This document shows positions 1-16,789 of a stretch of 64,000 nucleotides of DNA, piece after piece. Numbering within the stretch: the stretch's first letter is position 1; each line of letters begins with the position of its first letter. Position numbers and translations under genes: made by a program. The notes beneath the pieces were generated by a model that did no database searches, was not told where the DNA came from, and saw only the letters and a list, made by a program, of their open reading frames with translations. The DNA comes from a virus, in IMG/VR virus record IMGVR_UViG_3300050027_000006. One strand, written 5' to 3'.

Positions 1-1070
1 GTGGCGGCAAGTACAAGATCGTCCAGAAGGGCACCGGCAAGACGCTCTCGGTTCATGACTCCAAGGAGCAGGCCGAGTCTGCCTTCCGTGCTATGGAGAC
101 TCACATGCACGGAGCTAGGGACACCTCCTACAACCGTGATGTCGAGTGTCACTACTGTGGTGAGAAGCTGACCAAGGGTCCCGGCGCCCACGGCTCGAAC
201 GGCTGGACCGACAAGGGCGGCTCGAAGAACTGCTCCGGTGGTCATGACCCGCACGTCCCGTGGCTCGATGAGGGTTCGCCCTCTCGCAGCGAGTCATCCC
301 GCAAGGTCGCCTTCCCCGGTGACGAGTGCTTCAGTTGCGGCTACCGTGGCGGCGAGGGTGGACACGACTGGGACTACTCGACAGGCGGAGCCAAGTGCCC
401 GTCGTGCGGTTCGTATGAAGTCCACGACGCATCTCTAGGCCACCCTAACCCCGACTACACGAAGGCCTCGAAGACCGCCACCCCGGCCAAGTTCTGCGGC
501 GCCTCGTGCAGGTCGAACTTCCATAGCGCTACGAGCGGTGGCCTGCTCGATCCCCACAGCGGACCTCAGAAGAACGCCAAGGGCAACTGCGGCTACTGTG
601 GCCGACCGATGCACCACAGCGCCTCTGTCACCGCTTCCGAGGGTCTGACCGATGACGACCTCCGTGAGTTGGCTGCCAAGGGCAACTGGATCAACTACTT
701 CTGCGACGAGTGCGGCAAGCAGCACGAGAAGAACAAGCACCACAAGCACCACGGTTCTGCCGACTACACCGGCTGGACTCCGCAGAATGGCTCGGATGCC
801 AACGGCTACGGCAAGGACGGCGTGTGGGTCGGCAAGGTCTTCGAGAACAACTACGGTGACGGCAAGGACTGGCTCGTCCACTTCAAGGACGGCGGCGCCA
901 TCGACACGCAGGCCTTCGCCACCGAGGACGAAGCCCTCAGCTTCGCTCAGAGTCACTTCGTGACCGCCTCGAAGAAGACGTACTGCCCCTGTGGAAGTTG
1001 CGGTAAGCCCTGCGAAGTAGTGGGTAAGATCGCATCTCGCTATGAGTGTGACGAATGCCGAGGACGCTAA
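1..1070 (+). CDS. Zn-ribbon-rich modular protein, 5' partial (function unknown)
   Basis: Frame 3 is open from the window edge (GGKYKIVQKGTGKTLSVHDSKEQAESAF precedes the first Met at 93), so the gene starts upstream of the window. At least six CxxC-type pairs. Two [AT]ASK[TK] linker motifs (KASKTATPAKF, TASKKTYCPCG). Stop TAA 1068-1070. Confidence 0.6.
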   Translation, partial: GGKYKIVQKGTGKTLSVHDSKEQAESAFRAMETHMHGARDTSYNRDVECHYCGEKLTKGPGAHGSNGWTDKGGSKNCSGGHDPHVPWLDEGSPSRSESSRKVAFPGDECFSCGYRGGEGGHDWDYSTGGAKCPSCGSYEVHDASLGHPNPDYTKASKTATPAKFCGASCRSNFHSATSGGLLDPHSGPQKNAKGNCGYCGRPMHHSASVTASEGLTDDDLRELAAKGNWINYFCDECGKQHEKNKHHKHHGSADYTGWTPQNGSDANGYGKDGVWVGKVFENNYGDGKDWLVHFKDGGAIDTQAFATEDEALSFAQSHFVTASKKTYCPCGSCGKPCEVVGKIASRYECDECRGR

Positions 1071-1073
1071 CAC

Positions 1074-2498
1074 ATGCCAACAGATCCCGCAGCAGCTACA
1101 GCAGCACCGACCGGTAACTCTGCACCTCAGGGTCAGACCGATACGAGTGCTGCGACGGCTCAGCCAGATGAACAGATGCTCAACTCTTCCGCCCCTTCGG
1201 GAGGCTCCGTGACCCCCGCCGCACCCGAGATGCCCACAACGTCATCCTACGCAGTAGCGTGCCTCGACTGCGGCCAGGACTACACCTTCGGTCGAGTGAC
1301 GGCCAACATGCGCTGCTTCTGCGGCTCGGACAACCTCACCTACGAGGCTGCTGAGGAGCAGACCGGAGCCGAAGGCTACGTCGCCATACATTACCCGAAG
1401 GGCCTCCTCGGTCTCGTCGGGCCGGAGGGTCAGGGCTACCACTACTCACTCGCTCGTCAGGACGAAGGCATCCTCTACACCGCAGGGTGGGCGCCCGACG
1501 AGGACTCCGCCAAGAAGATCGTGGAGACGCTCGCCCCGGCCTACGCCGGAGCTACTCGTACTGCCACCCTCCTCGGTACCTGGGTAGCCGCTGACTTCCC
1601 GCCCAAGAAGGACGACAAGGACAAGAAGAAGGACGACGACGACAAGGGCGGCAACGAGACGCACCCGCCGTCCGGTGACTCTGGCGGCGAAGAGGCTCCC
1701 GCAGCCCCCGCTGAGGCCCCCGGAGAGGCCCCTCAGGCTGCTCCTACGGCCCCCGGAGAGGTTCAGGTGGACCCTAACGCTCCTCCGGCCCCAGGAGCCG
1801 TACCGGGCGAGGTTGTAGATCCGCTCCTTCAGGTCATGGACACGGCACAGCAGCAGGTTGACGCCGCCGTCGATCAGGCCAACCAGCTTGGCCATGATGC
1901 CAAGGAAGTTGCCTACGACGTGGATCAGTTGTTCTCGAACTGGCGCTGCCAGAACTGCCAGATCGAGGGCGAGGCGAACATCTCGGATGACGGTCAGGTA
2001 GACCTTCAGGGTGACCTCTTCGACAACCAGCCGTGCGCAGCCCCCGCAGCCCCCGAGCAGGACCCCAACCAGCAGGTCCCGCAACAGAACCAGCAGAACC
2101 AGCTTCCGCAGGGCGCACCGGCCACCAACGACCAGATCCCCGCCACTCAGCAGAACCTCCCGAGCCAGACCGCCAGCCGCACGTGCAAGAAGTGCCACGG
2201 CAGCGGCAAGGTGCAGTCCGGTAACGACCGAGGCGAGAAGTGCCTCTCGTGCAACGGTCAGGGCCACACCTCGACCGGCGAGTCTCTCGACAAGAGGGCC
2301 AGCGACTTCGATGGTGACGACGCCGACCAGCGCAACGTGCTCGACCAGCAGGAGGGGACCAACCCCAACCTGGCGAAGGAAGAGCGACTGACCGCTATGG
2401 TCGAGCAGATCCTCGATACGAACCCCGGCATGAATGCTCAAGCCGCCCGACGAGTGGCCGAGACTACCCTCGCCAAGTTCCCGTCGCTGGCCTCGTAA
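1074..2498 (+). CDS. Zn-ribbon / DnaJ-type CxxCxGxG protein with P/A/Q-rich low-complexity core
   Basis: ATG lies 4 nt after the upstream stop. Motifs: CLDCG..CFCG, CQNCQ, CKKCHGSGKV..CLSCNGQG. The GC-rich low-complexity core explains the shadow ORFs on both strands. Confidence 0.7.
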   Translation: MPTDPAAATAAPTGNSAPQGQTDTSAATAQPDEQMLNSSAPSGGSVTPAAPEMPTTSSYAVACLDCGQDYTFGRVTANMRCFCGSDNLTYEAAEEQTGAEGYVAIHYPKGLLGLVGPEGQGYHYSLARQDEGILYTAGWAPDEDSAKKIVETLAPAYAGATRTATLLGTWVAADFPPKKDDKDKKKDDDDKGGNETHPPSGDSGGEEAPAAPAEAPGEAPQAAPTAPGEVQVDPNAPPAPGAVPGEVVDPLLQVMDTAQQQVDAAVDQANQLGHDAKEVAYDVDQLFSNWRCQNCQIEGEANISDDGQVDLQGDLFDNQPCAAPAAPEQDPNQQVPQQNQQNQLPQGAPATNDQIPATQQNLPSQTASRTCKKCHGSGKVQSGNDRGEKCLSCNGQGHTSTGESLDKRASDFDGDDADQRNVLDQQEGTNPNLAKEERLTAMVEQILDTNPGMNAQAARRVAETTLAKFPSLAS

Positions 2499-2974
2499 TG
2501 AGTTCCCGAATCCCCGAGGGAGAGCAGGTAGCATACGTCGGGGAACCGGGCGGCAGCGGCATCAACATCGATGACCGAGGCCGAGTAATCCAAGCTGCTG
2601 GCGATGGCAGCCATGTCCAGTGGTCCACAGGACCAGCTAAGGGACAGATAACACTAGAGGCTAACAACGATCTCGTCAGCATTCGCTCCCGTGGGGGCAA
2701 TGATGATACACTTGACGGGCCGCTCGTCACGATCGCCGTGCGAGATGTCTTCGACCGTGAAGGGACGACTGGCCTCCTGAACGCCCTGAACCATGACGGT
2801 CACCTAGCGTTCTTCGAACCGTTGGCCGTCGAGGCAGTAGAGATGATCCGAGACAACATCCGCACAGATGCAAGCTTCCGACCAATCCTGGCGCAGCTAA
2901 GCGCCGTCGAAGCTCAAGAACTCGTCGCTCTCGCCACTTCGACCCTACTGCGTGACGCTTTCGGAAGAAGCTAG
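2498..2974 (+). CDS. hypothetical protein
   Basis: TAATG stop/start overlap with the upstream gene; 158 codons; no motif recognised. Confidence 0.65.
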   Translation: MSSRIPEGEQVAYVGEPGGSGINIDDRGRVIQAAGDGSHVQWSTGPAKGQITLEANNDLVSIRSRGGNDDTLDGPLVTIAVRDVFDREGTTGLLNALNHDGHLAFFEPLAVEAVEMIRDNIRTDASFRPILAQLSAVEAQELVALATSTLLRDAFGRS

Positions 2975-2976
2975 AT

Positions 2977-3828
2977 ATGGCCAGGCAGTGCGATGGATGT
3001 GGACGCAAGATGACCCCGTTCGTTCCTCGCAAGAAGAACGGCTCTGGCGACATGCTCTGCGAGGGATGCAGCAATGGACGAGAGGGTAGGCCCTTGACTC
3101 GCTCAGCCGATGTTAACGACGAGTACGTCCAGTCTGTGAAGGACATGACGGATACTGAGTTCGATGAGTTCATGCGCTCCCTCAAGGGCTACGGCGTCGA
3201 GCAGGGTCGCATCGATAACATGTACGAGACCCGACGCACAAGTCAGTTGATCCGGGCGCAGGCCCATCAGACTCCCGACGCTTCTGGCTACCTCGTGAAG
3301 GTGGCCCATGGCAACATGGATGGCGTCACCGTCTTCCATTGCCCCTTCTGCGGTTCGGGTCAGGTCGTCAACTCCGGTACCGCCATCGAGTGCGGCTTCT
3401 GCCACAGCGCCTTCACGGTGCTCGTGCAGCCGCAGTTCCCGATGATGCCGCAGACGGTCGACGGTCAGCCCTACACACCGGGTCAAGCTCCTGGCGCTGC
3501 ACCCACCGACCCAGGACCCGCTCCTGGTGTCACGGAGACTCCCGAGGAAGAGGACGGCTCCTTCGGTGGCGATCAACTATCCGAGAAGCTCCCTGACGAC
3601 TCATCGGATGACGCTGCTGGTGGAGACGACAGCGGCAACCCGTTCGCCAAGAAGGACGATAGCGACAAGCCCCCGGCTCCGAAGGAGTCAGCGGTCCATG
3701 CTGCATACATCACTGAGGAGGGTATAGTGCTAACCGAGAGTGCCTACATGGCCCATCTTGCCATCAAGTTCAGCCCCCGCAGGACCGAGACTCTCGCTGA
3801 GGTCAAGCAGCTTCACGGACGGGCATAG
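2977..3828 (+). CDS. Zn-ribbon protein with acidic Pro-rich tail
   Basis: Two ribbons (CDGCG..CEGC and CPFCG..CGFC). Sits directly upstream of the portal gene. Confidence 0.7.
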   Translation: MARQCDGCGRKMTPFVPRKKNGSGDMLCEGCSNGREGRPLTRSADVNDEYVQSVKDMTDTEFDEFMRSLKGYGVEQGRIDNMYETRRTSQLIRAQAHQTPDASGYLVKVAHGNMDGVTVFHCPFCGSGQVVNSGTAIECGFCHSAFTVLVQPQFPMMPQTVDGQPYTPGQAPGAAPTDPGPAPGVTETPEEEDGSFGGDQLSEKLPDDSSDDAAGGDDSGNPFAKKDDSDKPPAPKESAVHAAYITEEGIVLTESAYMAHLAIKFSPRRTETLAEVKQLHGRA

Positions 3829-3831
3829 CCG

Positions 3832-6765
3832 ATGCCGGAACTGTGGACGCCCTCAGGCTCCCGCCAGGTGCAGGCCGACGCCGATGTCTTCGGCGCCCTC
3901 GCTGACGCCACCGGACATCAGGACTACCACGCCCTAGCGAAGACTGCTCTCGCCAAGGGCAAGCAGGGCGCTGTCGATACGTCGGATGTCGTCGCTGAGA
4001 TGCGAGCCAACCGCCGCATCACCAAGAACGCCTCTGGTGGCGTCAACAGCGGACAGGGCATGGGTGGAGTAGGCCAGTTCTCGTTCGCTACCGCACGCCC
4101 TCGTGACCCGCTCTTCTACTGGCGCCAGAACAACCTCCCCTACGACGTAGCGAAGGACGAGGAGCTAGAGAAGATCCGTGCGTTCTGCAATACACCAGAT
4201 GCCCCGGTGTGGATGGCTGATTACTCGTTCAAGCCGATGGGTCAGATTGTTGAAGGGGATGAGGTCATCGGCTGGGAGTATCGCACGGGACCACAGGGCG
4301 AGGTACGTAAGGTACTTGTCCGCACCCCCGTTCTAGCTATTCAACGTCGGATCGCCCCCGAGATTGTCAAGGTGACCTTCGAGTCTGGTGAGGTTATCCA
4401 TTGCACACCGGACCACCTATGGGCCAATCCACATTACTCCCCTAACCAAACTACCGGCTGGAAGCAGCCGGAATATCGGACGGCTGAGGTTGGACGAGAA
4501 CTTGTTCGGATGGTTACCCCCACTCCCGAGTTGAGTTCCGAAAAGGAGTTGATAGTGGCCGCATGGCTGGGGGGCGTTTATGACGGTGAGGGATGTGGAG
4601 AAGGGATTGCTCAAAGCCAGAGTCATAATCCTGGGGTATGTCAACGGATCGCTGACTCACTGGACTTCCTGGGGATTCCATATACGCAGACTCCCGAGTC
4701 ATTTTGGTTGCGGGTGCCTGGTCGTCGTCAAGGGGCCGCACAAGACCTAGTGGACTTCTTGAACTGGACCAATCCGACAAGGCGGGTGACTGCGGCGATT
4801 GACAAGAGGTTGCTGGCTACACCGAATGGTGGACGAGAGAAGATCGTCAGTATCGAATCAGAAGGCTCCGGCGAAGTAGTTTCGATACAGACGGGAACTG
4901 GTAACTACACCGCTTGGGGTATTGCTTCCAAGAACTGCCGTCTGCTCTACATCACACACCCCGTCATCGCCTCGGCCATCGACATCTTCTCGAAGTACCC
5001 GCTCATCGGGATGGAGATGACCGGCAAGGACGACGAACTCAACGACTTCTACGGCGACCTCTTCTTCGACCAGCTTGACTACGAGGAGTTCCTACTCGAC
5101 GTGGGTCGAGAGTATTGGACCGTGGGCGAGGCATGGCCGCTCGGCACCTTCAACGACACGCTCGGCGTGTGGGAGTCCGACGAACTCATCAACCCGGACG
5201 ACGTTGAGGTCATTCGCTCACCGTTCCTCAAGGAGCCTCGCTTCAAGATGAAGCTCCCCGAGACGATCCGCAAGATCATCTTGGAGCGTGAGCCGAAGTG
5301 GGAGTACGAAGCCCTCATGAGGGTGTACCCCGAGCTTGCTCACTTCAGCCGTGAGGAGTCGAAGATGGATGTCTCCGGCGTCCTCCTCAAGCAGTTGAAG
5401 TTCAAGGCCGACAGCTTCCACCCCCGAGGCATCCCGATCCTGATGCGTGGCTTCCGTGCCGTCATTCAGGAAGAGATGCTCAACGCCGCCCAGGATGCCA
5501 TCGCTGAGCGCCTCTACACCCCGATGATCGTGGCCAAGCTCGGTGCCTCCGCATCCGACCTCGGTACCACGCAGCCGTGGGTCCCGAACCAGGGCGACCT
5601 CGAAGCGTTCGAGGCATCGCTCGACGCCGCCCTCGCTGGCGACTTCCGAGTCCTGATCCACCACTTCGCCCTCGACATCTCGCAGGTGTTCGGCAAGGAG
5701 GCCATGCCGGACTTCAGCCCGGACTTCGACCGCCTCACCGACCGTCAGCTTCAGGTGTTCGGTCTGTCCCGCACGATGCTCAACGGCGCTGGCTCCGGTG
5801 AGACCTACGCCGCCGACGCCCTCAACCGAGACATCGTGACGCAGTTGCTCTCGACCTACCAGCGTAAGATCCAGCGCTTCTGGAAGAGCCGGGCCATGGT
5901 CGTGGCCGAGGCCCAGGAGCACTACGACTACGAAGAGCGCAACGGCATCAAGTACCCGATCATGGAAGAGATCCTCGAAGTCAACGAGGAGACCGGCGAA
6001 GAGCGCATCGTGGAGCGACCGAAGCTCCTCATCCCCGACCTAACCTTCAAGACCATGAGTCTGGCCGACGAGGACAGCAACCAGCAGTTCATGGAAACCC
6101 TCCGTGCCTCTGGTGTGCCGATCTCGATGAAGACCCGACTGGTCAACGTCGACATCGATCTGGACGAGGAAGTCGAGAAGGTCAAGGAAGAGCAGATCGA
6201 GCTTGCTGTCGCCGCACAGGAGACCCGCAAGGAGACCTACCTTGCCCTCCTCGCCGCTGGTCTGCCGATCCCCGACGACCTCAAGGAAGACTTCCAGCCG
6301 GTCGCTCAGACTCAGGGTCCCGTCGATGCTGCCGGTCAGCCGGAAGGTCCGCAGGTGCTCCCGGCCCTCGGACTGGACGAGCCTGCCCCGACCGACGCTC
6401 TGGCCCCGACCGACGAGGACATCGCCGCAGCCGAGGACGCAGAGGCCGATGAGGGTGAGGACCCCAACTCCTTCGGTGGTGACTCCCTCTCGGGCAAGAT
6501 GCCTCCGGGTGATGACGATCAGACTGATGACGCTAGCGGCAGCACTATCCCTCTTCCCCGCAACCAGCACGCTTCTCGACCGCCCGAGAGCGACGAGCAG
6601 CGAGGCAAGATGCCCAAGGGTTCTAGCCTCTCGACGGGTCCTCGCCACGTCGGCGCCCGCAAGTTCCGCACCCTCGACCGAACTCAACCCCTGGCAGATC
6701 AGCTACGTGCGCCTGTCTGGCCCCATGAAAATGCAACTAAGGAACGTAATGAGACGACAGACTAG
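3832..6765 (+). CDS. portal protein interrupted by an intein
   Basis: 977-codon ORF. Removing codons 119-368 joins ...EKIRAF|CRLLYITHPVIASAIDIFSKYPL.... The 727-aa extein, the acidic C-terminal tail and the lack of a Walker A fit a portal rather than a terminase. Assignment is by resemblance from memory, not by search. Confidence 0.65.
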   Translation: MPELWTPSGSRQVQADADVFGALADATGHQDYHALAKTALAKGKQGAVDTSDVVAEMRANRRITKNASGGVNSGQGMGGVGQFSFATARPRDPLFYWRQNNLPYDVAKDEELEKIRAFCNTPDAPVWMADYSFKPMGQIVEGDEVIGWEYRTGPQGEVRKVLVRTPVLAIQRRIAPEIVKVTFESGEVIHCTPDHLWANPHYSPNQTTGWKQPEYRTAEVGRELVRMVTPTPELSSEKELIVAAWLGGVYDGEGCGEGIAQSQSHNPGVCQRIADSLDFLGIPYTQTPESFWLRVPGRRQGAAQDLVDFLNWTNPTRRVTAAIDKRLLATPNGGREKIVSIESEGSGEVVSIQTGTGNYTAWGIASKNCRLLYITHPVIASAIDIFSKYPLIGMEMTGKDDELNDFYGDLFFDQLDYEEFLLDVGREYWTVGEAWPLGTFNDTLGVWESDELINPDDVEVIRSPFLKEPRFKMKLPETIRKIILEREPKWEYEALMRVYPELAHFSREESKMDVSGVLLKQLKFKADSFHPRGIPILMRGFRAVIQEEMLNAAQDAIAERLYTPMIVAKLGASASDLGTTQPWVPNQGDLEAFEASLDAALAGDFRVLIHHFALDISQVFGKEAMPDFSPDFDRLTDRQLQVFGLSRTMLNGAGSGETYAADALNRDIVTQLLSTYQRKIQRFWKSRAMVVAEAQEHYDYEERNGIKYPIMEEILEVNEETGEERIVERPKLLIPDLTFKTMSLADEDSNQQFMETLRASGVPISMKTRLVNVDIDLDEEVEKVKEEQIELAVAAQETRKETYLALLAAGLPIPDDLKEDFQPVAQTQGPVDAAGQPEGPQVLPALGLDEPAPTDALAPTDEDIAAAEDAEADEGEDPNSFGGDSLSGKMPPGDDDQTDDASGSTIPLPRNQHASRPPESDEQRGKMPKGSSLSTGPRHVGARKFRTLDRTQPLADQLRAPVWPHENATKERNETTD
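4186..4935 (+). mobile_element. intein (250 codons) with one LAGLIDADG-like motif
   Basis: Starts with Cys (CNTPDAPVWM, block A-like). Contains TPDH (block B-like) and AAWLGGVYDGEGCG (LAGLIDADG-like). Ends ...GNYTAWGIASKN followed by Cys +1. Visibly lower GC than the flanks. Confidence 0.75.
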
Positions 6766-8689
6766 CTACCGACGCCTTGATGCAGAGCTTCCCGCCTTCG
6801 GGACCCTCGCTACCACCCGTAGCGGTGAGGTGGGCGAGGTCATCGCTCATGAGGACGGACAGGCCCGCCTTCAGTTCGCCGGACACGTCCAAGGTCTCTA
6901 CGCCCCGGACGAGATCACCTGGCAGCACGTTGGCGCACAGACCGAGGGCAAGTGGCAGACCGAGGGGTCCGAGCTTCACCTCGCTGACCGTGACTACCCT
7001 GAGCTAGCCGACATCCTCACCAAGCCCGCTCCCGCCATCGTGCAGGAGGGCAACGAGTGGGGCCGCACCGCCTCGAAGACAGCCAAGTATAGCTGTGACA
7101 ACCCGAACTGCAAGGACACGGGACCGCTGAACCCTGAGCCGGGTGGTGGCAACACGATCGGACGTTGCCCCTCGTGCAACTCTCGGTGCTGGGCCGGATC
7201 TGCTAGCAGCGGTCAGCGCCCCATCAAGACAGCCAAGACCGCAGCCTCGCACTACCACTGTGGCAAGTGCCAGGAGACGCTGACCCGAGGCTCGAAGGAG
7301 CAGTTCGACAGCCCGACGTGCCCGAAGGGTGGCAAGCACACCTGGGAGGAAGGTGTCGGCGTCGACCCCAACCAGGGCAGCTTCAGTCTAGCCGCCTCGA
7401 AGACCGCCTCCGATGAGGTCGACGTGTTCGGCTACCCCTTCTCACGTGAGCAGGCTCAGAAGCTCCACGACTACCTCGACGGTCTCCCGAAGAACAAGAT
7501 CGACTTCCGTCCGATGGACGACCTACTCAACGAGTCGAGTGCGTACACCGCTGACGGCTGGGGCATCAGCGACTACAACGATGACTGGAACGACGCTACC
7601 CGCTCACGTGGTGGTGGCTCCGGCTCCGCCTTCAAGGAAGAGTTGGCCCGTCAGCTAGCCGGGAAGACAGCCGCTCGTGCGCAGTCCCCGAAGCATGAGC
7701 AGTATCGAGCCTTCGACGGCTGCTACGCCGAAGAGGGCCAGGAGTCTGCTACCTGCCCGCATCACCAGAAGTACCGTGCGTTCTCCGGCGACTACTACAC
7801 GCCTCCCAAGACTTCGAGCAAGACGGCTACTCGACACCTCACGCTAACTGGACCCCATGCCGGACAACCGATCTGTGGCGCCCCTATGGATTCCGCCGAT
7901 CAGAATGTCCATGCCGCTTACGCTCCCGAAGCCATGTTGTCGGACCCCGCCACGTGTGCTGCATGTCGTGCTGCATGGATCGGTGAAGATGATCCCACGA
8001 AGGCTCCCGACACCAATCAGGGCCAGCTATTCGCATCCCGCAAGCTGGCATGGGAGATCGAGGATGTCCGCTCTTCTGTCGACCAGGGCTGGTATGGACA
8101 GTCGGGTGTCGATGGTACTAAGATCGACCAGTTCTCGGCCAGCGCCCTGACTCAGGTCTACGACGCCCTCAGCCCGGAGAACCAGGCGAAGCTCAGCGCC
8201 ATGCCGATTGAGCGTGCAGTCGATGTAGCCTTCAAGCTCATCAAGAAGCATCAGGGTTCGGTCACGGCTGGCGACAGCGACCGAGTTCGAGGAACGAACA
8301 ACGACTCATTTTGGGAGTCGGTTGGCTACGGTCAGACTGATGCCGAGCGAGAGCGTAATGGTATCGGCGTGTCGGAACACACTGACGATATCTGCCCCGG
8401 CTCCGGCAAGGTCCAGAACAGCGGTGGACGTTGCACGGTCTGCGGCAAGCCGGTAGGCGGCTGGGAGACTAAGGACGGCATGGTCCGCAAGTGGCACAGC
8501 GCCTCAAAGACGGCTGACGGCCCCGGCTCCACCGAGACGGTCTACGATCCTTTCAACGCCTTCACGCCGAAGGCTGGCGAGTGCCCGTCGTGCTTCGGTG
8601 AGGGCGCCTTCAGCGAACTCAACCCTGACGGCAAGGGCTTCGGGGAAGAGAAGACCTGCCCCGACTGCGGTGGAACTGGTAAGGCATAG
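6749..8689 (+). CDS. multi-Zn-ribbon modular protein (putative internal virion/ejected protein)
   Basis: Start set at ATG 6749 (AAGGA 5 nt upstream, overlaps the portal stop). The ORF-track start at 6203 would overlap the portal gene for 180 codons. Six [AS]SKTA-like linkers separate Cys-rich modules. C-terminal DnaJ-type CPSCFGEG..CPDCGGTG. Confidence 0.7.
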   Translation: MRRQTSYRRLDAELPAFGTLATTRSGEVGEVIAHEDGQARLQFAGHVQGLYAPDEITWQHVGAQTEGKWQTEGSELHLADRDYPELADILTKPAPAIVQEGNEWGRTASKTAKYSCDNPNCKDTGPLNPEPGGGNTIGRCPSCNSRCWAGSASSGQRPIKTAKTAASHYHCGKCQETLTRGSKEQFDSPTCPKGGKHTWEEGVGVDPNQGSFSLAASKTASDEVDVFGYPFSREQAQKLHDYLDGLPKNKIDFRPMDDLLNESSAYTADGWGISDYNDDWNDATRSRGGGSGSAFKEELARQLAGKTAARAQSPKHEQYRAFDGCYAEEGQESATCPHHQKYRAFSGDYYTPPKTSSKTATRHLTLTGPHAGQPICGAPMDSADQNVHAAYAPEAMLSDPATCAACRAAWIGEDDPTKAPDTNQGQLFASRKLAWEIEDVRSSVDQGWYGQSGVDGTKIDQFSASALTQVYDALSPENQAKLSAMPIERAVDVAFKLIKKHQGSVTAGDSDRVRGTNNDSFWESVGYGQTDAERERNGIGVSEHTDDICPGSGKVQNSGGRCTVCGKPVGGWETKDGMVRKWHSASKTADGPGSTETVYDPFNAFTPKAGECPSCFGEGAFSELNPDGKGFGEEKTCPDCGGTGKA

Positions 8690-8694
8690 CCCCG

Positions 8695-11600
8695 ATGCGC
8701 ATCGGATGGACGATAGCATCGGGCGACATCGCTAACCTCTCGAACGACGAGCAGCAGGACCCGGATCAGGACAAGCTCGACGGCTTCACTGACACGAACG
8801 CCGAGCCGGACTTCGCCGCTGGCGCCGTGCAGGCTGCCTACGCAGGTGCGTGCCCCGGATCGCAGCAACCCGCCGAGCGCTTTGCCTTCATCCCTAACTG
8901 GGGATCCGCCAAGACTCGGATCGCTCACGCCTGTCCCGCTTGTGGCAAGGTGCTCTCTCCTCAGCGCAGCAAGAGCGACGAGGTGCACACGACGGCTCAC
9001 AAGCCCGCCGACGAGACCTATCACGTGCGTATGGTCAACAAGCTCATGAACGAAGGCTACGAGGCGAGTAACCCGCTAGTCGATCACCACGAGGGATGGG
9101 TCGGCAAGCTGAACCCCGGCGCCCACACCGCCGCCAACTCCGACGAGTTGGCCACCGAGCCGATGGGCTACGACGACAACGACATGGACGACTTCAACAC
9201 CGGTACGACCGGCCCGACTGTCACGCAGACCGACATCAACCCCGACAACTCCTTCTCCGGTTCGAGGAAGCTAGCGAGCGGCATTGTGGTTGAGGGATCG
9301 TGGACCGACGTGCAGTCGAAGGCGCAGCGCATCTACAAGGATGGCGGCGTCCGCATCATCTCCGTCACTGGCCCCTATGTCGCTGGGAACGTCAAGGGTT
9401 CCGAGGGGGTCTACGAGACGACCCTACAGCGAGGCCCGTCCGGTAGCATCGATCAGTGGACCTGCTCGTGTCCGTGGTTCGCCTACTCCTTCGGTCGCTC
9501 GGGCCGCTGGAAGAAGTACGAAGGTCGCATGTGCTCGCACGCACTCGCCTTGCAGTACAAGGCGCAGAGCGAAGGCATGTTCGGTCGAGAGATCAAGGAA
9601 GACACGCAGTCGCCGGGCTGGGACAAGGAGATCACCCGCTACGAGGCCCCGCCGCCGAAGGACTGGCGTGCTAGCAAGACTGCCCTCTCTGGCAAGGTCT
9701 ATCGAGGGGTCTCCTCCGAGCTAGACGTGCAGCGCACGATCAACGGCGACGTGGACTTCTCGAACCCGTGGCTCAACACCTCCGGCGTCGGCATCTACGT
9801 CACCCTCGACCGCCAGCGTGCGCAGTCGTTCTCTCGGGGCTTCCTCATGACGGGTACGATCCCCGGCAACCCTAAGGTTCTAGTTGAGAGTCACTACTGG
9901 GACGACATCGCCCGTCACGTCGACTCCCCGGAGTGGAAGCGCCTCAAGAGCCTCGATCAGGGAGACCCATCGTCATACGCCCGACACAACGGCTACGACA
10001 TCGTTGCCTGTGACATGGACGGCAACCCTGACCTCGTTATCATCAACGCCAAGGTCGTGCACTGGGAGCCAGCACAGAAGATCTCTGCTCTAGCTGCCGT
10101 CCTCCCGACCCCGGCTACCAAGGCCTACCTTCGCCTCTTCGCCTCTTCGACCGACGACGAGCCTCGTGCATCGGATGGTACGTGGACCAAGGGCATGGGC
10201 GACAAGAGCGACACCGGCTTCGGCAAGATCACGCCGGGTGAGGCCCGTGGCGACTCGAAGAAGGTCACCCCGGAAGAGTTCGATGAGCTTGCGGCGAAGG
10301 GCAAGGAGCACTATGATCGCCTCCTCGCTGACAAGCGTCCGACGACTGCCTTCAACGATGAGGACCAGTGGAAGGACATCTGCTCCGGCGCCTACAAGGC
10401 GGCTCAGGAGTCATGGGGTGGCCAGACTATCGACCCGGCCACCGGTAAGGCCATCGAGCGCTCTAAGGGCTTCTCCCTTCAGGTGCGTGCCCCTGGCGAG
10501 AAGCAGCTAACCGTTCCCGAGGATGCGTCCGAGGACGAGTTCAACGAGATGATGGAGCGTGCCCGCAAGGAGTACGCCGAGAAGCTCAAGGGCAAGGAAG
10601 TCTACCTCGGCGTCTTCCGTGACGACGATAACAACCGCATCGACTTCGACCCGGTGACCATCGTGGACACGGAGGCAGAGGTCGACTCGCTCGGAGCCTA
10701 CACGCACGCAGTCGGCGGAGCCTACGACTTCGCCACCGGTAACGGCCACTTCCCTCCGCACGTCGCCTCGCTGTCGTCGGACATCAAGGACGCCGTGCAC
10801 GTCTGGTCAAGCATCAAGGTGAACAATCAGAAGTCCCTCCCGAACCCGGAGCACGACGGCTTCCGCTACGCCTTCCATCAGATCCTCGGTGACGTGGGCA
10901 GCTTCCGCTACAACGCCAGCAACCCGGAGTTCATGAAGGGTGAGCACGAGGCCACCGTCTTCCTCAAGGCCTTCATGGACAACCAGACCCCATCGCACCG
11001 CCCGCTCTACCGAGCCATCGGTCTGCACCCGGCTGCCTACATGGAGATCCTCTCTGCCGCTACCGCTGGCAGTCTCGATCTCCCCCCGGCTAGCTGGTCA
11101 GCCAACAAGAAGCTGACCGAGCAGTTCGGCCTCGACTACATGCAGGGCACCAAGAAGTATGAAGAGCGCATCATCTTCGTGACCCGCCCCGGCACGAAGT
11201 CGTGGGCGCTCGGTCGCACGAGCATGACGGGCTACGAGCGAGAGCATATCGTCGGTGGCCGCTTCCACGTTGTGAGCATCAAGTTCCCACCCGAGACGGA
11301 CAACACCACGGTCATCACCCTTCAGGAGACGGAGGGCTGGCCTGAGGACTTCGCCTCGACCGGCGACATGATCGAGCATATGGCCTTTGACTCCGCCGTG
11401 GTCAGCCCGCAGGATTCGAAGACAGCGGCGAAGGAACCCTATGGCTGGTGGCTGGCACCCGATGGCACGTTGATCGATGTCGCCAACTCCATGGACCACT
11501 TCTCGACTCCTCACCCCAAGGGGTCGATCCACCTCACCAACGAGTTGTGGGGGCTGGGAGGAGAGCAGGTTCGACTTCTGTCGGCGGGGGTCTACGGCTC

Positions 11601-12942
11601 CATCTCTACCGAGCAGATGAAGGCCCTCTACCGTCTCGTCTACTCCCACGACTTCAAGCGCTTCTGCGGCTCGATCTACAGCGAGGATGGCGAAAGCCTC
11701 CCCGGCTTCCCCGGCATCTCGGCGTCGATGCAGAACCTCTCGAAGCAAGAGATCATCGACCAGCTTCGCAACCTTGGCCAGTTGGCTTCTCGTACCGGGC
11801 GCTACCTCACCATCGATGAGGCTCGTGCCGGTGCGATCGACTACTCGCTCCCGATGACCGCAGCCGACCACGTTGATCCGCACAAGGGCACGATGATCGC
11901 TGTCCGTCCTCCCGAGTCTGTGTGCCAGAGCCTTGCGCTTCCTGACTCCGGCGCCGAGCCGGTCGAGCAGCTTCACGTGACGCTGGCCTACATCGGCCCG
12001 GAGGCTTCAGAGGATCTCGACCTCGACCTTCTCCGCCAGATCGTAGATGCGCAGTCGCAACTCTCTCCTTACATCGCCGGGACCCTCTCCGGCCACGGCA
12101 CCTTCGAGAACCCGGACGGGGATGTCTCCGTCGTCCTGGTCGACTCCGAGGAGCTACAGGTCGCCCGTGCGCTCCTGGTCGACGCCCTCGAACGAGCGGG
12201 CATCGAGGTCAGCCGAGAGCATGGCTTCGTTCCCCACATCACCCTGACCTACGGCGAGCACGGCCCGTTGCCCGCAGTCGACAAGGACGTGTTCTACTTC
12301 ACCGAGTTCATCATCTCTCCGCCGTCCGGCGTGTGGGAACGCTACGAGCTAGCGACCAACATCTCGTTGGCCGCTTCCGTGGTGGTGGCCGATCAGGAGA
12401 ACCCGCTCCCTCCGATCCACAACGCCGAGCCGTCCTGGGGGTCTAGCCCGATCAGTCAGGACGACCCCACGGGTAGCCCGCTCGATGCGGACGGGGAGAC
12501 TAACACGGTACTCCCAGGAGCGCAAGCTGTCCTCGATGAGGAGCCAGAAGGCGCCCTCCCGAGCACTGATGGGGAAGCCGGAGCAGACGGAGCACAGTCC
12601 GATCAGGACTATTACCCCACCGACGAACAAGACAACACGCACCTGTACGGAGGTGAGGGAGCGGCTCCGAGCACGATAGCCTGGCTAGACCCTCGAATCT
12701 CCAACAAAGGAGTGAAAGGTAACGACGACATGGACATAGCCGCCGCCGCACGCAACTTCTTGATGACCTCAACCGCTGTGAAGACATTCACGTATGCGGA
12801 GCAGCAGGAGATCATCCTCGAAGGCGAGGGAGTCACGGCATCCAACTTGGATCGTCTGAACCTCACTGGCACTCACTACGAAGCTTTGGAACAACAGCTT
12901 GCTACAGCCGAAGCCCTTGGAGAGCCTGTCGTCTGGTGGTAG
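8695..12942 (+). CDS. polyvalent protein: SWIM Zn finger + ADP-ribosyltransferase + 2H phosphoesterase (putative packaged/ejected effector)
   Basis: 1415 codons. SWIM motif CSCPWF..CSH. R-S-E ART triad LYR / SWS / EREHIV. Two HxT motifs, HVTLAY and HITLTY. Further SKTA-type linkers (RASKTAL, DSKTAAK). Confidence 0.8.
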   Translation: MRIGWTIASGDIANLSNDEQQDPDQDKLDGFTDTNAEPDFAAGAVQAAYAGACPGSQQPAERFAFIPNWGSAKTRIAHACPACGKVLSPQRSKSDEVHTTAHKPADETYHVRMVNKLMNEGYEASNPLVDHHEGWVGKLNPGAHTAANSDELATEPMGYDDNDMDDFNTGTTGPTVTQTDINPDNSFSGSRKLASGIVVEGSWTDVQSKAQRIYKDGGVRIISVTGPYVAGNVKGSEGVYETTLQRGPSGSIDQWTCSCPWFAYSFGRSGRWKKYEGRMCSHALALQYKAQSEGMFGREIKEDTQSPGWDKEITRYEAPPPKDWRASKTALSGKVYRGVSSELDVQRTINGDVDFSNPWLNTSGVGIYVTLDRQRAQSFSRGFLMTGTIPGNPKVLVESHYWDDIARHVDSPEWKRLKSLDQGDPSSYARHNGYDIVACDMDGNPDLVIINAKVVHWEPAQKISALAAVLPTPATKAYLRLFASSTDDEPRASDGTWTKGMGDKSDTGFGKITPGEARGDSKKVTPEEFDELAAKGKEHYDRLLADKRPTTAFNDEDQWKDICSGAYKAAQESWGGQTIDPATGKAIERSKGFSLQVRAPGEKQLTVPEDASEDEFNEMMERARKEYAEKLKGKEVYLGVFRDDDNNRIDFDPVTIVDTEAEVDSLGAYTHAVGGAYDFATGNGHFPPHVASLSSDIKDAVHVWSSIKVNNQKSLPNPEHDGFRYAFHQILGDVGSFRYNASNPEFMKGEHEATVFLKAFMDNQTPSHRPLYRAIGLHPAAYMEILSAATAGSLDLPPASWSANKKLTEQFGLDYMQGTKKYEERIIFVTRPGTKSWALGRTSMTGYEREHIVGGRFHVVSIKFPPETDNTTVITLQETEGWPEDFASTGDMIEHMAFDSAVVSPQDSKTAAKEPYGWWLAPDGTLIDVANSMDHFSTPHPKGSIHLTNELWGLGGEQVRLLSAGVYGSISTEQMKALYRLVYSHDFKRFCGSIYSEDGESLPGFPGISASMQNLSKQEIIDQLRNLGQLASRTGRYLTIDEARAGAIDYSLPMTAADHVDPHKGTMIAVRPPESVCQSLALPDSGAEPVEQLHVTLAYIGPEASEDLDLDLLRQIVDAQSQLSPYIAGTLSGHGTFENPDGDVSVVLVDSEELQVARALLVDALERAGIEVSREHGFVPHITLTYGEHGPLPAVDKDVFYFTEFIISPPSGVWERYELATNISLAASVVVADQENPLPPIHNAEPSWGSSPISQDDPTGSPLDADGETNTVLPGAQAVLDEEPEGALPSTDGEAGADGAQSDQDYYPTDEQDNTHLYGGEGAAPSTIAWLDPRISNKGVKGNDDMDIAAAARNFLMTSTAVKTFTYAEQQEIILEGEGVTASNLDRLNLTGTHYEALEQQLATAEALGEPVVWW
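9290..9560 (+). other. SWIM-type zinc finger domain
   Basis: WTCSCPWFAYSFGRSGRWKKYEGRMCSHALALQY gives the CxCx(n)CxH pattern at 9463-9540, preceded by a beta-rich stretch. Confidence 0.7.
10960..11300 (+). other. ADP-ribosyltransferase (R-S-E class) domain
   Basis: Arg in PLYRAIG (11011-11013), SWS (11092-11100), ExE in GYEREHIVGG (11236-11244). Order and spacing are compatible with ADPrib_exo_Tox-type domains seen in phage MuF/Alt-like proteins. Confidence 0.65.
11890..12350 (+). other. 2H phosphoesterase (LigT/CPDase-like) domain
   Basis: Two HxT motifs: LHVTLAYIG (His 11974-11976) and VPHITLTYG (His 12235-12237). They are about 87 residues apart, as in 2H-superfamily enzymes. Confidence 0.7.
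12683..12718. repeat. imperfect direct repeat, copy A (GGCTAG..GAATCTCCAACaAAGgaGTGAAAG)
   Basis: Matches 13453-13484. The 11-nt core GAATCTCCAAC is identical and the flanks are similar. Lies inside the polyvalent ORF (WLDPRISNKGVKG). Confidence 0.6.
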
Positions 12943-12951: not shown

Positions 12952-13458
12952 ATGTCACGAGGCTCTACTAACTCTGCGAACGCCGCCAAGACTCGGTGTC
13001 CCAATGGCCATGCGTATACGCCAGAGAACACCTACAGCAATCACGGCAAACGAGAGTGTCGCACTTGTAAGCGAGAGCGCAAAGCTGCGTGGGATGCGAC
13101 TCACAAGGCCGAACAACGAGCGTATTTCCTAGCCTACTATCCTCTGCATCGAGAGGAGATCCTCGCCAATAACTATCGGTGGATGCGAGTAGATCCCGAG
13201 CGAACCAAGCTGAAGAACCAGATCAGCAATGCTAGACGCAAGGAAGCTCCTGGTCATTGTACTCCTGAACAGCTAGCCGCTCGGATTGCCTTCTTCGGAG
13301 GGAAGTGTTGGATGTGTGGCGCTCCCCGGGAACATATCGACCATGTGAAGCCCCTGGCCAAGGGTGGCTCCAACTGGCCAGCCAATCTCCGACCAGCGTG
13401 TAGTACGTGTAACCTTCGGAAGTCGGACCAATGGCCCCTTCCGTCCCTGGCAGGCTAG
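12952..13458 (+). CDS. HNH homing endonuclease
   Basis: HIDHVKPLAKGGSNWPANLRPACSTCNLRK (HNH core). N-terminal CPNGHAYTPENTY..GKRECRTC Zn module. Confidence 0.85.
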   Translation: MSRGSTNSANAAKTRCPNGHAYTPENTYSNHGKRECRTCKRERKAAWDATHKAEQRAYFLAYYPLHREEILANNYRWMRVDPERTKLKNQISNARRKEAPGHCTPEQLAARIAFFGGKCWMCGAPREHIDHVKPLAKGGSNWPANLRPACSTCNLRKSDQWPLPSLAG

Positions 13459-13484
13459 CTGAATCTCCAACGAAGAGGTGAAAG
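13453..13484. repeat. imperfect direct repeat, copy B
   Basis: GGCTAGctGAATCTCCAACgAAGagGTGAAAG. Overlaps the HNH stop (TAG 13456-13458). Followed by a start-less 24-codon remnant ISNEEVKELLQQGWLAEYGNPQLQ* (13463-13537). Confidence 0.6.
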
Positions 13485-13514
13485 AACTTCTTCAACAGGG
13501 ATGGCTAGCTGAGT

Positions 13515-14441
13515 ATGGGAATCCGCAACTTCAATAATGTGTCGGTACCGCAGACGATCCTCAACTCTGGCGGCATCGACAACAACCCGCTGACCGTGGG
13601 CATCACGGTGGGCGATGCTTCGTCATATCCTGCGGTCCCCTTCACACTGGGGATTGAGCGAGGTACTCCCAACCAAGAGGTTGTCGAGTGCACGGCGCTG
13701 ACCGGTTCTACCGGCTTCATCGTCACCCGTGGCTTCAACGGTTCACCGATCGTCGCTCATCCTCAGGGCGCCTCCGTCGAGCTTACCTCGGCGGCTATCG
13801 ACTACGCTGAGGCGAACGAGTTCATCAACATCATGACGACCAAGGGTGACATCATCACCTTTGCGGCAGGCCCCGCTCGTCTCGGTGTCGGCGCCGATGG
13901 CACGGCCCTCACCGCTGACCACACGCAGATCTCGGGTCTCGCTTGGGTCCAGCCCGTCCCGCCTGGTGTCGTCTTCTACACCGCAGCTTCCGCCGCTCCG
14001 GCTGGCTTCGTCCTCGCCAACGGTCAGTCGCTTGCTTGTGCTGGTGTGGCCGCTGCCCTGTTCGCTCAGATCGGCACGACCTACGGCTCGGTCGACGGCG
14101 CTCACTTCAATGTACCGAATGCTGCCACTCGTACCATCCGTGGTAACGGTTCTGGCTACTCGCTTGCTGCTACCGGTGGCTCCGACACAGCGCCCGCCTC
14201 TGTCGCTCCCCACACCCACGGTAACTCGATCCTCATCGGTGGCACTCCCGTCACTACAGAGATCGTTGTCTACGATCCGGGCAGCACCATCCAGCTTGCC
14301 TCGGGCGCTCCGAGCACTCCGTTCGGCGTGTCTTACACGGTGACCCCTTCGCTCGTTGTGAGCATCGACTCGGCTGGTAGCAGCACCCCGATCAACATTG
14401 TGAACAAGTACATCGTCCTGACCCCGATCATCAAGCTCTAA
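13515..14441 (+). CDS. tail fibre-like protein with phage tail collar domain
   Basis: PPGVVFYTAASAAPAGFVLANGQSL...LFAQIGTTYGSVDGAHFNVPNAATRTIRGNG matches the tail collar consensus. The N-terminal module is shared with the next gene. Confidence 0.75.
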   Translation: MGIRNFNNVSVPQTILNSGGIDNNPLTVGITVGDASSYPAVPFTLGIERGTPNQEVVECTALTGSTGFIVTRGFNGSPIVAHPQGASVELTSAAIDYAEANEFINIMTTKGDIITFAAGPARLGVGADGTALTADHTQISGLAWVQPVPPGVVFYTAASAAPAGFVLANGQSLACAGVAAALFAQIGTTYGSVDGAHFNVPNAATRTIRGNGSGYSLAATGGSDTAPASVAPHTHGNSILIGGTPVTTEIVVYDPGSTIQLASGAPSTPFGVSYTVTPSLVVSIDSAGSSTPINIVNKYIVLTPIIKL

Positions 14442-15619
14442 TGACGACCCCGGTTGAAGTATGGGCAGACAATGCCACCGGAACCTTCGGTGCACCTGGG
14501 ACACCGGGTGACACGACGATCAGTGTGGCGCAGACGGCGGGAATCTTCCCGACGCTGAGTGCTGGCCAGGTCTTCCACCTCGTCATTGACTTCGATACGG
14601 TCAACGCAGAGATCGTTGAGGTCACGGCGACCTCCGGCTCGCACATCCTCGGCTGGGTCTTCACTCTCGCCTCCCCCGGCCTCGTCAACGCCCACAACGG
14701 TCCTCCCGGTGGCGCTCAGTGCGCCCTCGTCATCACGAAGGAAGGCCTCGACAATATGCTGGCCGAGTCCGTCGTGCTCTCGACGTTCACGACCGCAGGT
14801 GACACCATCTATGGTACCGGCGCCTCTGCCGTCACCCGCCTCCCCATCGGCACGAACGGCTACGTCCTCACGGTAGTGAGCGGTGTCCCCGCATGGGTGG
14901 CCCCTGGCGCACCTCCGACCGGTGCTGCTGGCGGAGACCTCGGTGGCACGTACCCCAACCCATTGGTCGACTCCATTCAAGGCGTCGTCATCTCCGGCAC
15001 TCCGGTCGCAGGCGATGGCCTCTACGCCACCGGAGCTTCGACCGCCGCCTGGTCAGCCCTCGACGTAGCACAAGTCTCTGAGGTCTTCAACTTGGCTGGC
15101 GACATCATCGTCGGTACCGGAGCCGCTACCGGTGAGCGTCTCGTCGCTGGCGCCGCTGGCACGGTCCTCACGGTTGGCGGTTTCGATCCCCCTGGACTTG
15201 AGTGGGTGCCTCTCGCACTGACTACAGATGTCGGCACTCTCGGTAGCGATGCTGTCATCGGAACTTCTTCCGGGTCAGCTATCCTCACGACGGCTTCCTT
15301 GGACATCGGCTTCTGGTTGATTACCGTCACTGCGTTGGTGGAGACCACGGCGACAGCGACGGGTCGAGTCGGAATCGCACTCGCTGGTGGTGGAGCGACC
15401 GCAACCTTCTTGGGTCCTCAAGCCGTTCAAACTGCATTGCCATCGTCAGTTACCGATACGCAGGTTGTCTCTCTGACTTCTCTTGTTCAAGTCACTGCGG
15501 CTGGTACTCTGCTGGTCGTCGCCTTCAACACCGATACTGGACAGACAGCGACAGTCCTTCAACTCGATGCCGTGCAGAGCGAGAGCGCTACCGGGTACAC
15601 GGCGGTGAAGGTCGCATGA
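14441..15619 (+). CDS. tail fibre-like protein
   Basis: TAATG coupling. The N-terminal segment (VFHLVIDFDTVNAEIVEVTATSGS) parallels 13515 (PFTLGIERGTPNQEVVECTALTGS). Contains a GDLGGTYPNPLV motif and Gly/Thr/Ala-rich beta-type composition. Confidence 0.7.
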   Translation: MTTPVEVWADNATGTFGAPGTPGDTTISVAQTAGIFPTLSAGQVFHLVIDFDTVNAEIVEVTATSGSHILGWVFTLASPGLVNAHNGPPGGAQCALVITKEGLDNMLAESVVLSTFTTAGDTIYGTGASAVTRLPIGTNGYVLTVVSGVPAWVAPGAPPTGAAGGDLGGTYPNPLVDSIQGVVISGTPVAGDGLYATGASTAAWSALDVAQVSEVFNLAGDIIVGTGAATGERLVAGAAGTVLTVGGFDPPGLEWVPLALTTDVGTLGSDAVIGTSSGSAILTTASLDIGFWLITVTALVETTATATGRVGIALAGGGATATFLGPQAVQTALPSSVTDTQVVSLTSLVQVTAAGTLLVVAFNTDTGQTATVLQLDAVQSESATGYTAVKVA

Positions 15620-16104
15620 TAGATGCAACGGGCTTCACTTCCTTCGCTCAGAGTCTCGGTGGACTTGCCACCTTCGTCGCTGTCCTCGTCATCCCCGGCG
15701 CATGGCTGTTCCACCGCAAGGTCATCCGCCCCCTCTCCTTCGTGCTCGGCCTGAAGCAGGAGGACTCCCCGACCGGCGAGCCGATCCCTTCCATCCCCGT
15801 ACAGCTTGCCGAGATGCGCAAGAACCAAGAGGTCTTCAAGGAGCAGGTGCGTACCATCAATGCGGAGGTACACCCCAACGGTGGGAACTCGCTGAGGGAT
15901 GCAGTTGACAGCAACGGCAGGAACACTCGTGAACTCAGCATGAAGGTCGTGGATCTTCAGGGCACCTTGGATTCGCATCTCGCAGAGGAGCGCAGAGAGC
16001 GAGAGAAGATCGCTGCCCTGGCGCTCAAGACCGCCGCCGACTTCGCCGCTCTCACCGAGAAGACCGCAGCCCAACTAGCGAAGGACAACCGTGCTCAAGG
16101 TTAG
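15616..16104 (+). CDS. membrane-anchored coiled-coil protein
   Basis: ATGA coupling. N-terminal TM (LGGLATFVAVLVIPGAWLF). HPNGGNSLRDAV motif followed by a coiled coil. Confidence 0.65.
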   Translation: MIDATGFTSFAQSLGGLATFVAVLVIPGAWLFHRKVIRPLSFVLGLKQEDSPTGEPIPSIPVQLAEMRKNQEVFKEQVRTINAEVHPNGGNSLRDAVDSNGRNTRELSMKVVDLQGTLDSHLAEERREREKIAALALKTAADFAALTEKTAAQLAKDNRAQG

Positions 16105-16766: not shown

Positions 16767-16772
16767 GAGTCC

Positions 16773-16781
16773 ATTATAGCA
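16773..16781 (-). promoter_or_regulatory. extended -10 box TGcTATAAT
   Basis: Reverse complement of attatagca. Six nt separate it from the ATG at 16766, giving leaderless architecture. Confidence 0.45.
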
Positions 16782-16789
16782 CCTAAGAG
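16780..16789 (+). promoter_or_regulatory. CACCTAAGAG motif copy
   Basis: Directly abuts ATG 16790. Same core as 19557, 19649 and 33925. Confidence 0.35.

Follow-up and report, generated by a model that had tools for sequence, protein, structure and literature searches.

Distribution of the motif in the window

The subject of this analysis is a 64,000-nucleotide (nt) stretch of viral DNA, IMG/VR record IMGVR_UViG_3300050027_000006 (the window), and a short peptide, typically Ala-Ser-Lys-Thr-Ala (ASKTA), that recurs in the giant zinc (Zn)-ribbon proteins flanking its portal gene. The first third of the window is the head module of a large myovirus, and nearly all genes of the window lie on the + strand. 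An initial annotation had listed copies of this peptide and suggested that they could be cleavage sites for the prohead protease; all of the copies that it listed are present in the open reading frames (ORFs) to which it assigned them, including RASKEAAT (21039-21053) and KSASKIAAS (38712-38726). We favor the reading that ASKTA-type sites are predicted prohead-protease cleavage sites bounding exchangeable cassettes in capsid-delivered polyproteins, and we put its probability at roughly 55%. The three ORFs concerned, ORFs A, F and G, comprise 2,416 amino acids (aa) together; these ORFs, their motif copies and one outlying variant are as follows.

3-1070, + strand: ORF A, 355 aa seen, 5' end cut by the window edge; Zn-ribbon cassettes
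465-479, + strand: ASKTA of ORF A, separating Zn-ribbon cassettes
966-980, + strand: ASKKT of ORF A, separating Zn-ribbon cassettes
6749-8689, + strand: ORF F, 646 aa, 100% identical to database protein P0001
7070-7084, + strand: ASKTA, first ORF F copy, at the end of the conserved N-terminal domain; retained in 13/14 homologues
7229-7243, + strand: TAKTA, flanking a Zn-ribbon cassette jointly with 7394-7408
7394-7408, + strand: ASKTA; a confidently modelled module starts 3 residues later
7661-7675, + strand: GKTAA, at a homology block boundary with P0004 (ASKTAA there) and P0002
7814-7828, + strand: SSKTA, before the conserved module 'TRHLTLTGPHAGQPICGA...'
8036-8050, + strand: SRKLA variant, before the helical module 'AWEIEDVR...'; in homologues, the orthologous position reads ASKTA, ASKAS or SRKVA
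8501-8515, + strand: ASKTA, before the terminal Zn-ribbon cassette of ORF F
8695-12942, + strand: ORF G, 1415 aa, polyvalent protein; Pfam SWIM and 2_5_RNA_ligase2
8905-8919, + strand: SAKTR of ORF G
9262-9276, + strand: SRKLA of ORF G
9670-9684, + strand: ASKTA of ORF G
11413-11427, + strand: DSKTA of ORF G
38712-38726, + strand: ASKIA variant (in KSASKIAAS) of ORF 38322-39536; Zn ribbons lie N-terminal to it and a globular part C-terminal

The two SRKLA variants (one each in ORFs F and G) are additions to the copies listed initially, and homologues carry ASKTA-like peptides at these positions. CxxC pairs flank each motif of ORF A on both sides, and no Pfam or PHROG family matched this ORF.

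ORFs A, F and G (2,416 aa in all) contain the exact tetrapeptide SKTA 7 times compared with 0.064 occurrences expected from composition, which bears out the earlier rough estimate of 7 copies in about 2400 residues where well under one would be expected. None of 3000 per-protein shuffles reached 7 SKTA, so that the enrichment also held in the comparison with a shuffled null that the initial annotation had named as a check. Since the most frequent 4-mer of any kind never exceeded 5 occurrences in these shuffles, the enrichment survives a look-elsewhere correction. SKTA was absent from the remaining ~14,600 aa of called window genes (Fisher p = 1.9e-6) and from the other five reading frames of the window. 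These results, which were replicated in independent relatives (see below), exclude chance or a compositional artefact, and the probability that we leave to such an origin is negligible.

The recurrence at the DNA level that had been pointed out is genuine but uninformative. The string GCCTCGAAGACMGCC is found at 465, 7070 and 7394, with only 3 of about 12 copies sharing this 15-mer, and it is composed mostly of preferred codons. Codons otherwise differ among copies (TCG, AGC or TCA; ACC, ACA, ACG or ACT; GCC, GCT or GCG), indicating that selection acts on the peptide and not on the DNA. Given this variation and the preferred codons, the shared 15-mer is best seen as a by-product of the peptide and not as a DNA repeat. 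A DNA-level repeat or boundary sequence was accordingly rejected, since nucleotide conservation does not go beyond what the peptide requires.

Cassette borders in the homologues

ORF F consists of a conserved 107-aa N-terminal domain followed by seven cassettes, with a motif copy before each, and its 13 homologues are mosaics of common and unshared blocks. Only 8 columns of their alignment are near-invariant, namely S109, K110, T111, A112 and four scattered residues, such that the first ORF F motif is near-invariant while its flanks are variable. The Zn-ribbon cassette at nt 7244-7393 is missing from P0002 and P0003, which have one ASKTA left at this place; in P0002 the junction is a hybrid, 'RPIK-ASKTA-ADEV', compared with two copies in the window. 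This hybrid junction suggests that recombination between motif copies may drive cassette exchange. Among the 33 internal block ends in the BLASTP alignments, 8 have a motif on both the query and the subject sides (0.31 expected), and 13 have one on the query side (4.0 expected).

The structure model of ORF F agrees with these break points, if weakly. Every motif site falls in low-confidence segments, and confident modules start at residues 223 and 437, just past motif sites; because two thirds of the chain have a predicted local distance difference test score (pLDDT) below 50, the placement of the motif in low-confidence segments is not significant alone. That the N-terminal domain of ORF F is homologous to Stormageddon gp12 was also considered and is unsupported (E 0.02).

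ORF G has a SWIM module at aa 195-300 and a 2H/LigT phosphoesterase module at aa 1090-1189, with a central region between them, and a conserved 'GTHY' module at its C-terminus; the SWIM module is homologous to gp12 of Gordonia phage Stormageddon (E 3e-17). Its 73 homologues are mosaics in which SWIM, LigT, SprT, ParB, GNAT, NUDIX and intein modules occur in varying order, and these homologues contain 137 KTA compared with 21.5 expected (6.4-fold enriched). Together with the near-invariant first motif of ORF F, this enrichment establishes the conservation among homologues that the initial annotation had proposed to look for. In a logo of 161 non-redundant sites, K-T-A is preceded by A at -2 (3.4x) and S at -1 (7.3x) and followed by A, G or S at +3. 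Because the motif stands before unrelated modules (Zn ribbons, the helical module, the SWIM module and others), it belongs to no single fold.

The 2H/LigT module (11962-12261) has a faint match, below threshold, to the nuclease family Acb1 (E 0.05), which acts against the cyclic-oligonucleotide-based antiphage signaling system (CBASS); a putative capsid-delivered cyclic-nucleotide phosphodiesterase would be an immediate anti-defence factor. At ORF G aa ~771-853 (11005-11253), there is an R-S-E-like pattern (LYRAIG ... SWSANKK ... EREHIVGG), which aligns, without statistical support, to the annotated ADP-ribosyltransferase (ART) gp19 of Stormageddon. An ART domain in ORF G was unconfirmed by Pfam/profile and PDB searches. 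The initial annotation's description of the motif as lying between recognizable modules thus stands with respect to the homology break points and, to a lesser degree, the structure model, while the ART domain that it counted among these modules does not.

Since cassette indels resolve within the motif (P0002) and three copies have a 15-nt string in common, the motif could in principle be a historical by-product without function, that is, either a duplicated unit that happens to contain the peptide or a microhomology scar of cassette-shuffling recombination. We consider this very unlikely, because the folds that follow the motif are unrelated to one another (Zn ribbons, helical modules, SWIM and others) and because the motif is kept while its flanks diverge beyond recognition, is encoded by different codons in different copies, and occurs in lineage-specific variants that nevertheless retain Lys or Arg followed by Thr-Ala ([KR]TA).

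The cultured phages Stormageddon, E3, Myrna and Alice all have a variant motif. Stormageddon lacks SKTA and has ASRRTA-type copies instead: its gp8, gp9, gp12 and gp13 (the last a protease fusion) contain 15 [KR]TA compared with 2.0 expected (0/5000 shuffles), while 12 other genes of this phage contain 4 compared with 4.6 expected. The variants ASRRTA and SRKTA are enriched only in the head polyproteins and the protease-scaffold fusion, and E3 gp70, which represents a motif-bearing class of homologues, is annotated as 'structural protein' in its record; this annotation and the location of the genes next to the portal are indirect pointers to a presence of such proteins in proheads or virions. 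In the uncultured relative L093, a single 1146-aa ORF contains 12 [KR]TA (0.42 expected), mostly of the form (S/N/T/K)-R-K-T-A, spaced 29-68 aa apart and with a small Zn ribbon after most of them; L126 has 21 [KR]TA compared with 3.1 expected. Relatives at 57-60% portal identity have few copies by a strict regular expression, and the looser [KR]TA core is what they share.

Judged from these sequences, the common core of the motif is [KR]-T-A, with Ser before it and a small residue after it. A-S is frequent before K-T-A yet absent from many variants (NRKTA, TRKTA). Within genomes, whether the protease site has K or R shows no clear co-variation with the residue at the cargo sites, and K and R look interchangeable. 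No motif enrichment was found in L128, a distant lineage of low guanine-plus-cytosine (GC) content with a stand-alone homologous protease, which indicates that the system is confined to the high-GC clade.

Two further proposals about the motif were discarded. Aromatic residues upstream of the motif are striking in the window, but positions -7 to -2 contain them at 67 of the 161 sites compared with 63.5 expected. Sites of the Prp/ribosomal protein L27 type, in which the cut lies between FF and ASKK, are used by some Firmicutes phages; this explanation was dropped given the lack of upstream aromatic enrichment, with no search for a Prp homologue having been made.

The protease-scaffold fusion and the cleavage reading

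The prohead protease of the window is encoded as a fusion to a scaffold-like tail, and a second peptidase gene lies further downstream.

19665-23081, + strand: protease-scaffold-like fusion, 1138 aa; PHROG 18299 head maturation protease, E 5e-18
19776-20309, + strand: prohead serine protease domain, aa ~38-215; conserved H81, S139 and H165
51510-52049, + strand: stand-alone SprT-like zincin; Pfam PF10263, E 4e-11

The protease domain had no match in sequence searches of Pfam, NCBIfam and PDB and was identified only by PHROG and a fold search. Its AlphaFold (AF2) model has a pLDDT of 81 and matches many phage prohead proteases in a viral structure library (e.g. phage G gp19 and phiRSL1, E down to 1e-16), while its top PDB match by Foldseek, pseudorabies virus assemblin pUL26N (4v08), is weak (probability 0.99, E 0.04, template modelling score 0.34). 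From the PHROG match and this model, we assign the domain as a prohead protease with an HK97/assemblin-type fold. The tail of ~900 aa contains several Zn ribbons and long acidic and Pro-rich stretches. In relatives, the size of the protease ORF ranges from ~220 aa, for a stand-alone protein, to over 3000 aa.

We collected 80 related protease loci and scanned 65 distinct sequences past the domain end ('...PADPTAFFLGVD...'). Of the 65 distinct relatives, 25 have a [KR]TA at most 40 aa beyond the protease domain compared with 1.2 expected, although these are not 25 independent events, since the boundary site is one inherited orthologous position. The boundary copy is usually GLGKA-ASKTA-A, located 13-20 residues past the domain end, and the protease tails overall contain 146 [KR]TA compared with 31 expected. 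The fusions of Stormageddon, E3, Myrna and Alice have ASRRRTA, ASRRRVA, ASRRKTA and ASRGKVVTA at the same place of the tail, and a second site about 40-50 aa from the C-terminus; the ASRRL of the window (22947-22961), which is about 40 aa from the C-terminus, aligns with Stormageddon ASRRPIAQKTAG. In P0088, whose protease domain is 86% identical to that of the window, the protease domain is followed by the terminal Zn-ribbon cassette of the window's ORF F, flanked by GSKTA and GKTAS. This shared, flanked cassette and the boundary copies indicate that the same peptide marks the protease boundary and the cargo joints and that cassettes move between both.

A second candidate site, FKTAH (19734-19748), lies before the protease fold. 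It was rejected as such because it is one state of a conserved [KR]xAHR, which reads [KR]TA in 17 of 74 relatives. The position probably belongs to the fold itself and is no cleavage site, though it might still serve for N-terminal trimming.

The mechanism that we propose is that [A/G/S]-S-[K/R]-(K/R)-T-A would act as a short linear motif at the joints of independently folding cassettes in the head-associated polyproteins of a clade of actinobacterial myoviruses, i.e. Stormageddon, E3, the cluster C group and many uncultured relatives. The giant portal-flanking proteins would enter the prohead as whole chains, perhaps by way of conserved modules at their ends (for example the N-terminal 107-aa domain in ORF F and the C-terminal 'GTHY' module in ORF G), and the prohead serine protease (the N-terminal domain of 19665-23081) would cut at or beside the motif. 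In relatives, a cut at this peptide would also release the protease from the scaffold-like tail. Such processing would yield many small Zn-ribbon peptides along with enzymes (the SWIM module and the 2H/LigT phosphoesterase), which may either be kept in the capsid for ejection or be cleared like propeptides. With one junction copy per cassette, cassettes could be inserted, deleted and moved between head proteins without disturbing the others. The invariant [KR]-T-A core suggests a cut after the basic residue or within T-A, while a cut between A and S, as in assemblin, would fit the ASKTA form only.

The motif could alternatively be an uncut, conserved linker or docking peptide, bound for example by scaffold, portal, capsid interior or packaged DNA, that tethers each cassette. 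The specificity for head ORFs, the conservation and the position at joints fit docking equally well, the basic residue or residues could contact DNA or the acidic scaffold stretches, and the protease ORF of the window has no canonical copy at the release position. There is, however, no obvious reason for a docking peptide to lie exactly where the protease domain ends, as it does in 25 of 65 relatives, or to flank every 30-70-aa Zn ribbon, and the placement parallels both the release and maturation sites of assemblin and the multiple cuts in SPN3US. Docking without cleavage is thus unlikely in our estimation, although it ranks first among the alternatives.

Cleavage by a different enzyme would be another explanation, be it a SprT-like zincin, one of the metallopeptidase modules found in some homologues, or a protease of the host that works on the chains prior to packaging or once they have been ejected. 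The window encodes the SprT-like gene listed above, SprT domains are found in the ORF G homologues P0019, P0022, P0026 and P0027, and Iyer et al. 2017 (PMC5512222) proposed that embedded metallopeptidases process polyvalent proteins. Among the homologues, however, motif density is unlinked to the presence of HExxH, and ORFs A, F and G contain neither HExxH nor a match to a peptidase family, which argues against an embedded zincin. SprT-like genes are, moreover, widespread in the non-structural regions of unrelated actinophage siphoviruses. The conserved position at the prohead protease boundary and the enrichment in the protease tails point to the prohead protease instead, making a different enzyme distinctly unlikely.

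Several observations nevertheless weigh against cleavage by the prohead protease. Within the window, the protease ORF itself carries degenerate copies only: at the place of the release site it has HHASANS (20346-20366), which is non-canonical (HHASKD in the close analogue L009), and the others are ASKEA (in RASKEAAT), which lies between two Zn ribbons of the tail, and ASRRL. No motif copy is present in the portal-adjacent Zn-ribbon proteins encoded by ORFs 1074-2498 and 2977-3828, or in the major capsid protein and the small protein before it. The boundary count in relatives goes back to a single inherited position, the model of ORF F is of low quality, with a mean pLDDT of 48 and values <50 over two thirds of its length, and similar strings can fall inside domains, as does TSKTG in the L004 homologue of ORF G. 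Finally, the searchable literature contains no report of cleavage or proteomic processing data for these phages; it likewise contains no mention of ASKTA, SSKTA, SRRTA or ASRRTA as a peptide motif. Taken together, the cleavage-site idea of the initial annotation remains the best-supported reading based on the break points, the lineage variants and the boundary copies in 25 of 65 relatives, but it is weakened by the degenerate copies in the protease ORF of the window and by the capsid protein and two Zn-ribbon ORFs that lack a copy.

A broader form of the prohead-protease reading, which we regard as possible but somewhat doubtful, is that the recognition peptide serves as a universal plug-and-play junction. 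The capsid cargo of the clade, dozens of Zn-ribbon mini-proteins along with enzymes, would then be encoded in polyproteins assembled from interchangeable units of cassette plus cut site that move into the protease-scaffold as well, with a specificity, [A/S]-S-[K/R]-T-A, that would be new for the HK97/assemblin clan and a release/maturation layout like that of assemblin.

If cleavage by the prohead protease does occur at these sites, the sequence alone would suffice to predict mature products in a large set of phages, most of them uncultured, that infect Mycobacterium, Gordonia, Rhodococcus and relatives. The free gain and loss of effector modules in giant 'polyvalent' head proteins would be explained as well, and the repertoire of prohead proteases would be widened by a specificity for a basic residue and by self-release in a layout like that of assemblin. 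The putative released modules, among them the 2H phosphoesterase and numerous Zn ribbons, are candidate anti-defence proteins that would enter the host along with the DNA.

Genomic setting and comparison with known systems

The remaining features of the head module are listed below.

3832-6765, + strand: portal protein; PHROG 2833 portal, E 2e-149
4186-4935, + strand: portal intein, aa 119-368; NCBIfam intein N-terminal and Rv2578c-type intein models
12952-13458: HNH endonuclease, between ORF G and the protease ORF
13515-14441: tail-collar-domain protein, between ORF G and the protease ORF
17802-18299: GIY-YIG-like ORF, weak match, between ORF G and the protease ORF
18304-18903: DUF6011 protein, between ORF G and the protease ORF
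23747-24739, + strand: major capsid protein; PHROG, E 5e-98

The relatives of this head module are Gordonia phage Stormageddon, Rhodococcus phage E3 and Mycobacterium cluster C phages, with the major capsid protein sharing 56-58% identity with those of Stormageddon, E3 and cluster C phages such as Myrna and Alice (tblastn). A megablast search of 1-12942 against phage genomes returned no nucleotide-level match to any deposited phage, a tblastn search of ORF F against phages returned no match, and PADLOC gave no hits. ORFs F and G are each identical to database proteins of one 151-kilobase (kb) metagenomic contig.

The intein in the portal gene is ~250 aa in length, with junctions between F and CNTPD and between IASKN and C; the portals of Stormageddon, E3, Myrna and Alice are shorter by about 110-150 aa. 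The portal contains one AKTAL (aa 36-40, nt 3937-3951). ORF F begins inside the portal gene, sharing its final 17 nt in a different frame (6749-6765), and the start of ORF G lies 6 nt past the stop of ORF F. Stormageddon and E3 have the SWIM module within a single post-portal protein (gp12 and gp76, respectively). ORF G and the protease ORF are separated by ~6.6 kb (12952-19548), whereas in Stormageddon the protease gene directly follows the gene for the SWIM protein; this region of the window therefore looks like a homing-endonuclease-rich insertion.

Internal head proteins of phages are processed by prohead proteases, which recognize short consensus motifs and also cleave themselves; the T4 cleavage motif is L/IxE. 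In herpesviruses, assemblin has a release (R) site after the protease domain and a maturation (M) site near the C-terminus of the scaffold tail, and it cuts between A and S in (V/L)-x-A-S. In eukaryotic RNA virus polyproteins, one recognition peptide is repeated at every joint, as with the picornavirus 3C sites.

The resemblance to picornavirus 3C ends there, as the protease clan and the biology are unrelated and the cassettes described here are accessory cargo, not a core replication or structural set. The fusion of the window resembles assemblin in having an N-terminal protease domain and a scaffold-like tail, with a recognition-like peptide after the domain and near the C-terminus in relatives; it differs in the invariant core [KR]-T-A, in the degenerate state of the window's own release position, and in that the fold match is weak. 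Like T4 gp21, phiKZ gp175 and SPN3US gp245, the protease of the window is a serine protease of HK97/assemblin fold encoded in the head module, and like the substrates of T4 and phiKZ-like phages, the candidate substrates have several motif copies per chain and are encoded by head-module genes. The T4 and phiKZ-like motifs end in Glu, however, and cleavage there mostly removes N-terminal propeptides, whereas the motif of the window is basic (A-S-K-T-A) and, in its clade, is present in up to 7-12 copies per chain and delimits interchangeable cassettes.

Processing of head proteins by the prohead protease has been described for phiKZ-like phages (PMC10052503; PMC5694885). The SPN3US protease gp245 cleaves head and ejection proteins after AXE, a propeptide being cut at several points, and also takes off a C-terminal propeptide of its own (PMC10052503). 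The capsid of Myrna is T=16 and includes minor capsid proteins; its authors likened it to that of herpes simplex virus 1 (HSV-1), in a paper that makes no mention of cleavage or a protease (PMC7150772).

The nearest counterparts of the giant proteins themselves are polyvalent proteins, which PMC5512222 (Iyer, Burroughs, Anand, de Souza, Aravind 2017) presents as very large late-gene proteins that combine unrelated effector and Zn-binding domains, are mosaic, and are predicted to be packaged and injected. ORF G likewise combines unrelated domains, is mosaic and lies beside the portal, and its homologues with SprT, ParB, GNAT, NUDIX and LigT modules extend the likeness. A term search of PMC5512222 turned up no description of a junction motif; the proteins of the window differ in having a junction peptide and in lacking a peptidase, an embedded peptidase being frequent but not obligatory in polyvalent proteins and not found in ORFs A, F and G. 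Prohead-protease processing at a consensus and polyvalent head-associated proteins are thus already known, and what appears to be new is the basic A-S-[KR]-T-A junction, its family-wide position at cassette borders, and its presence at the protease's own domain boundary.

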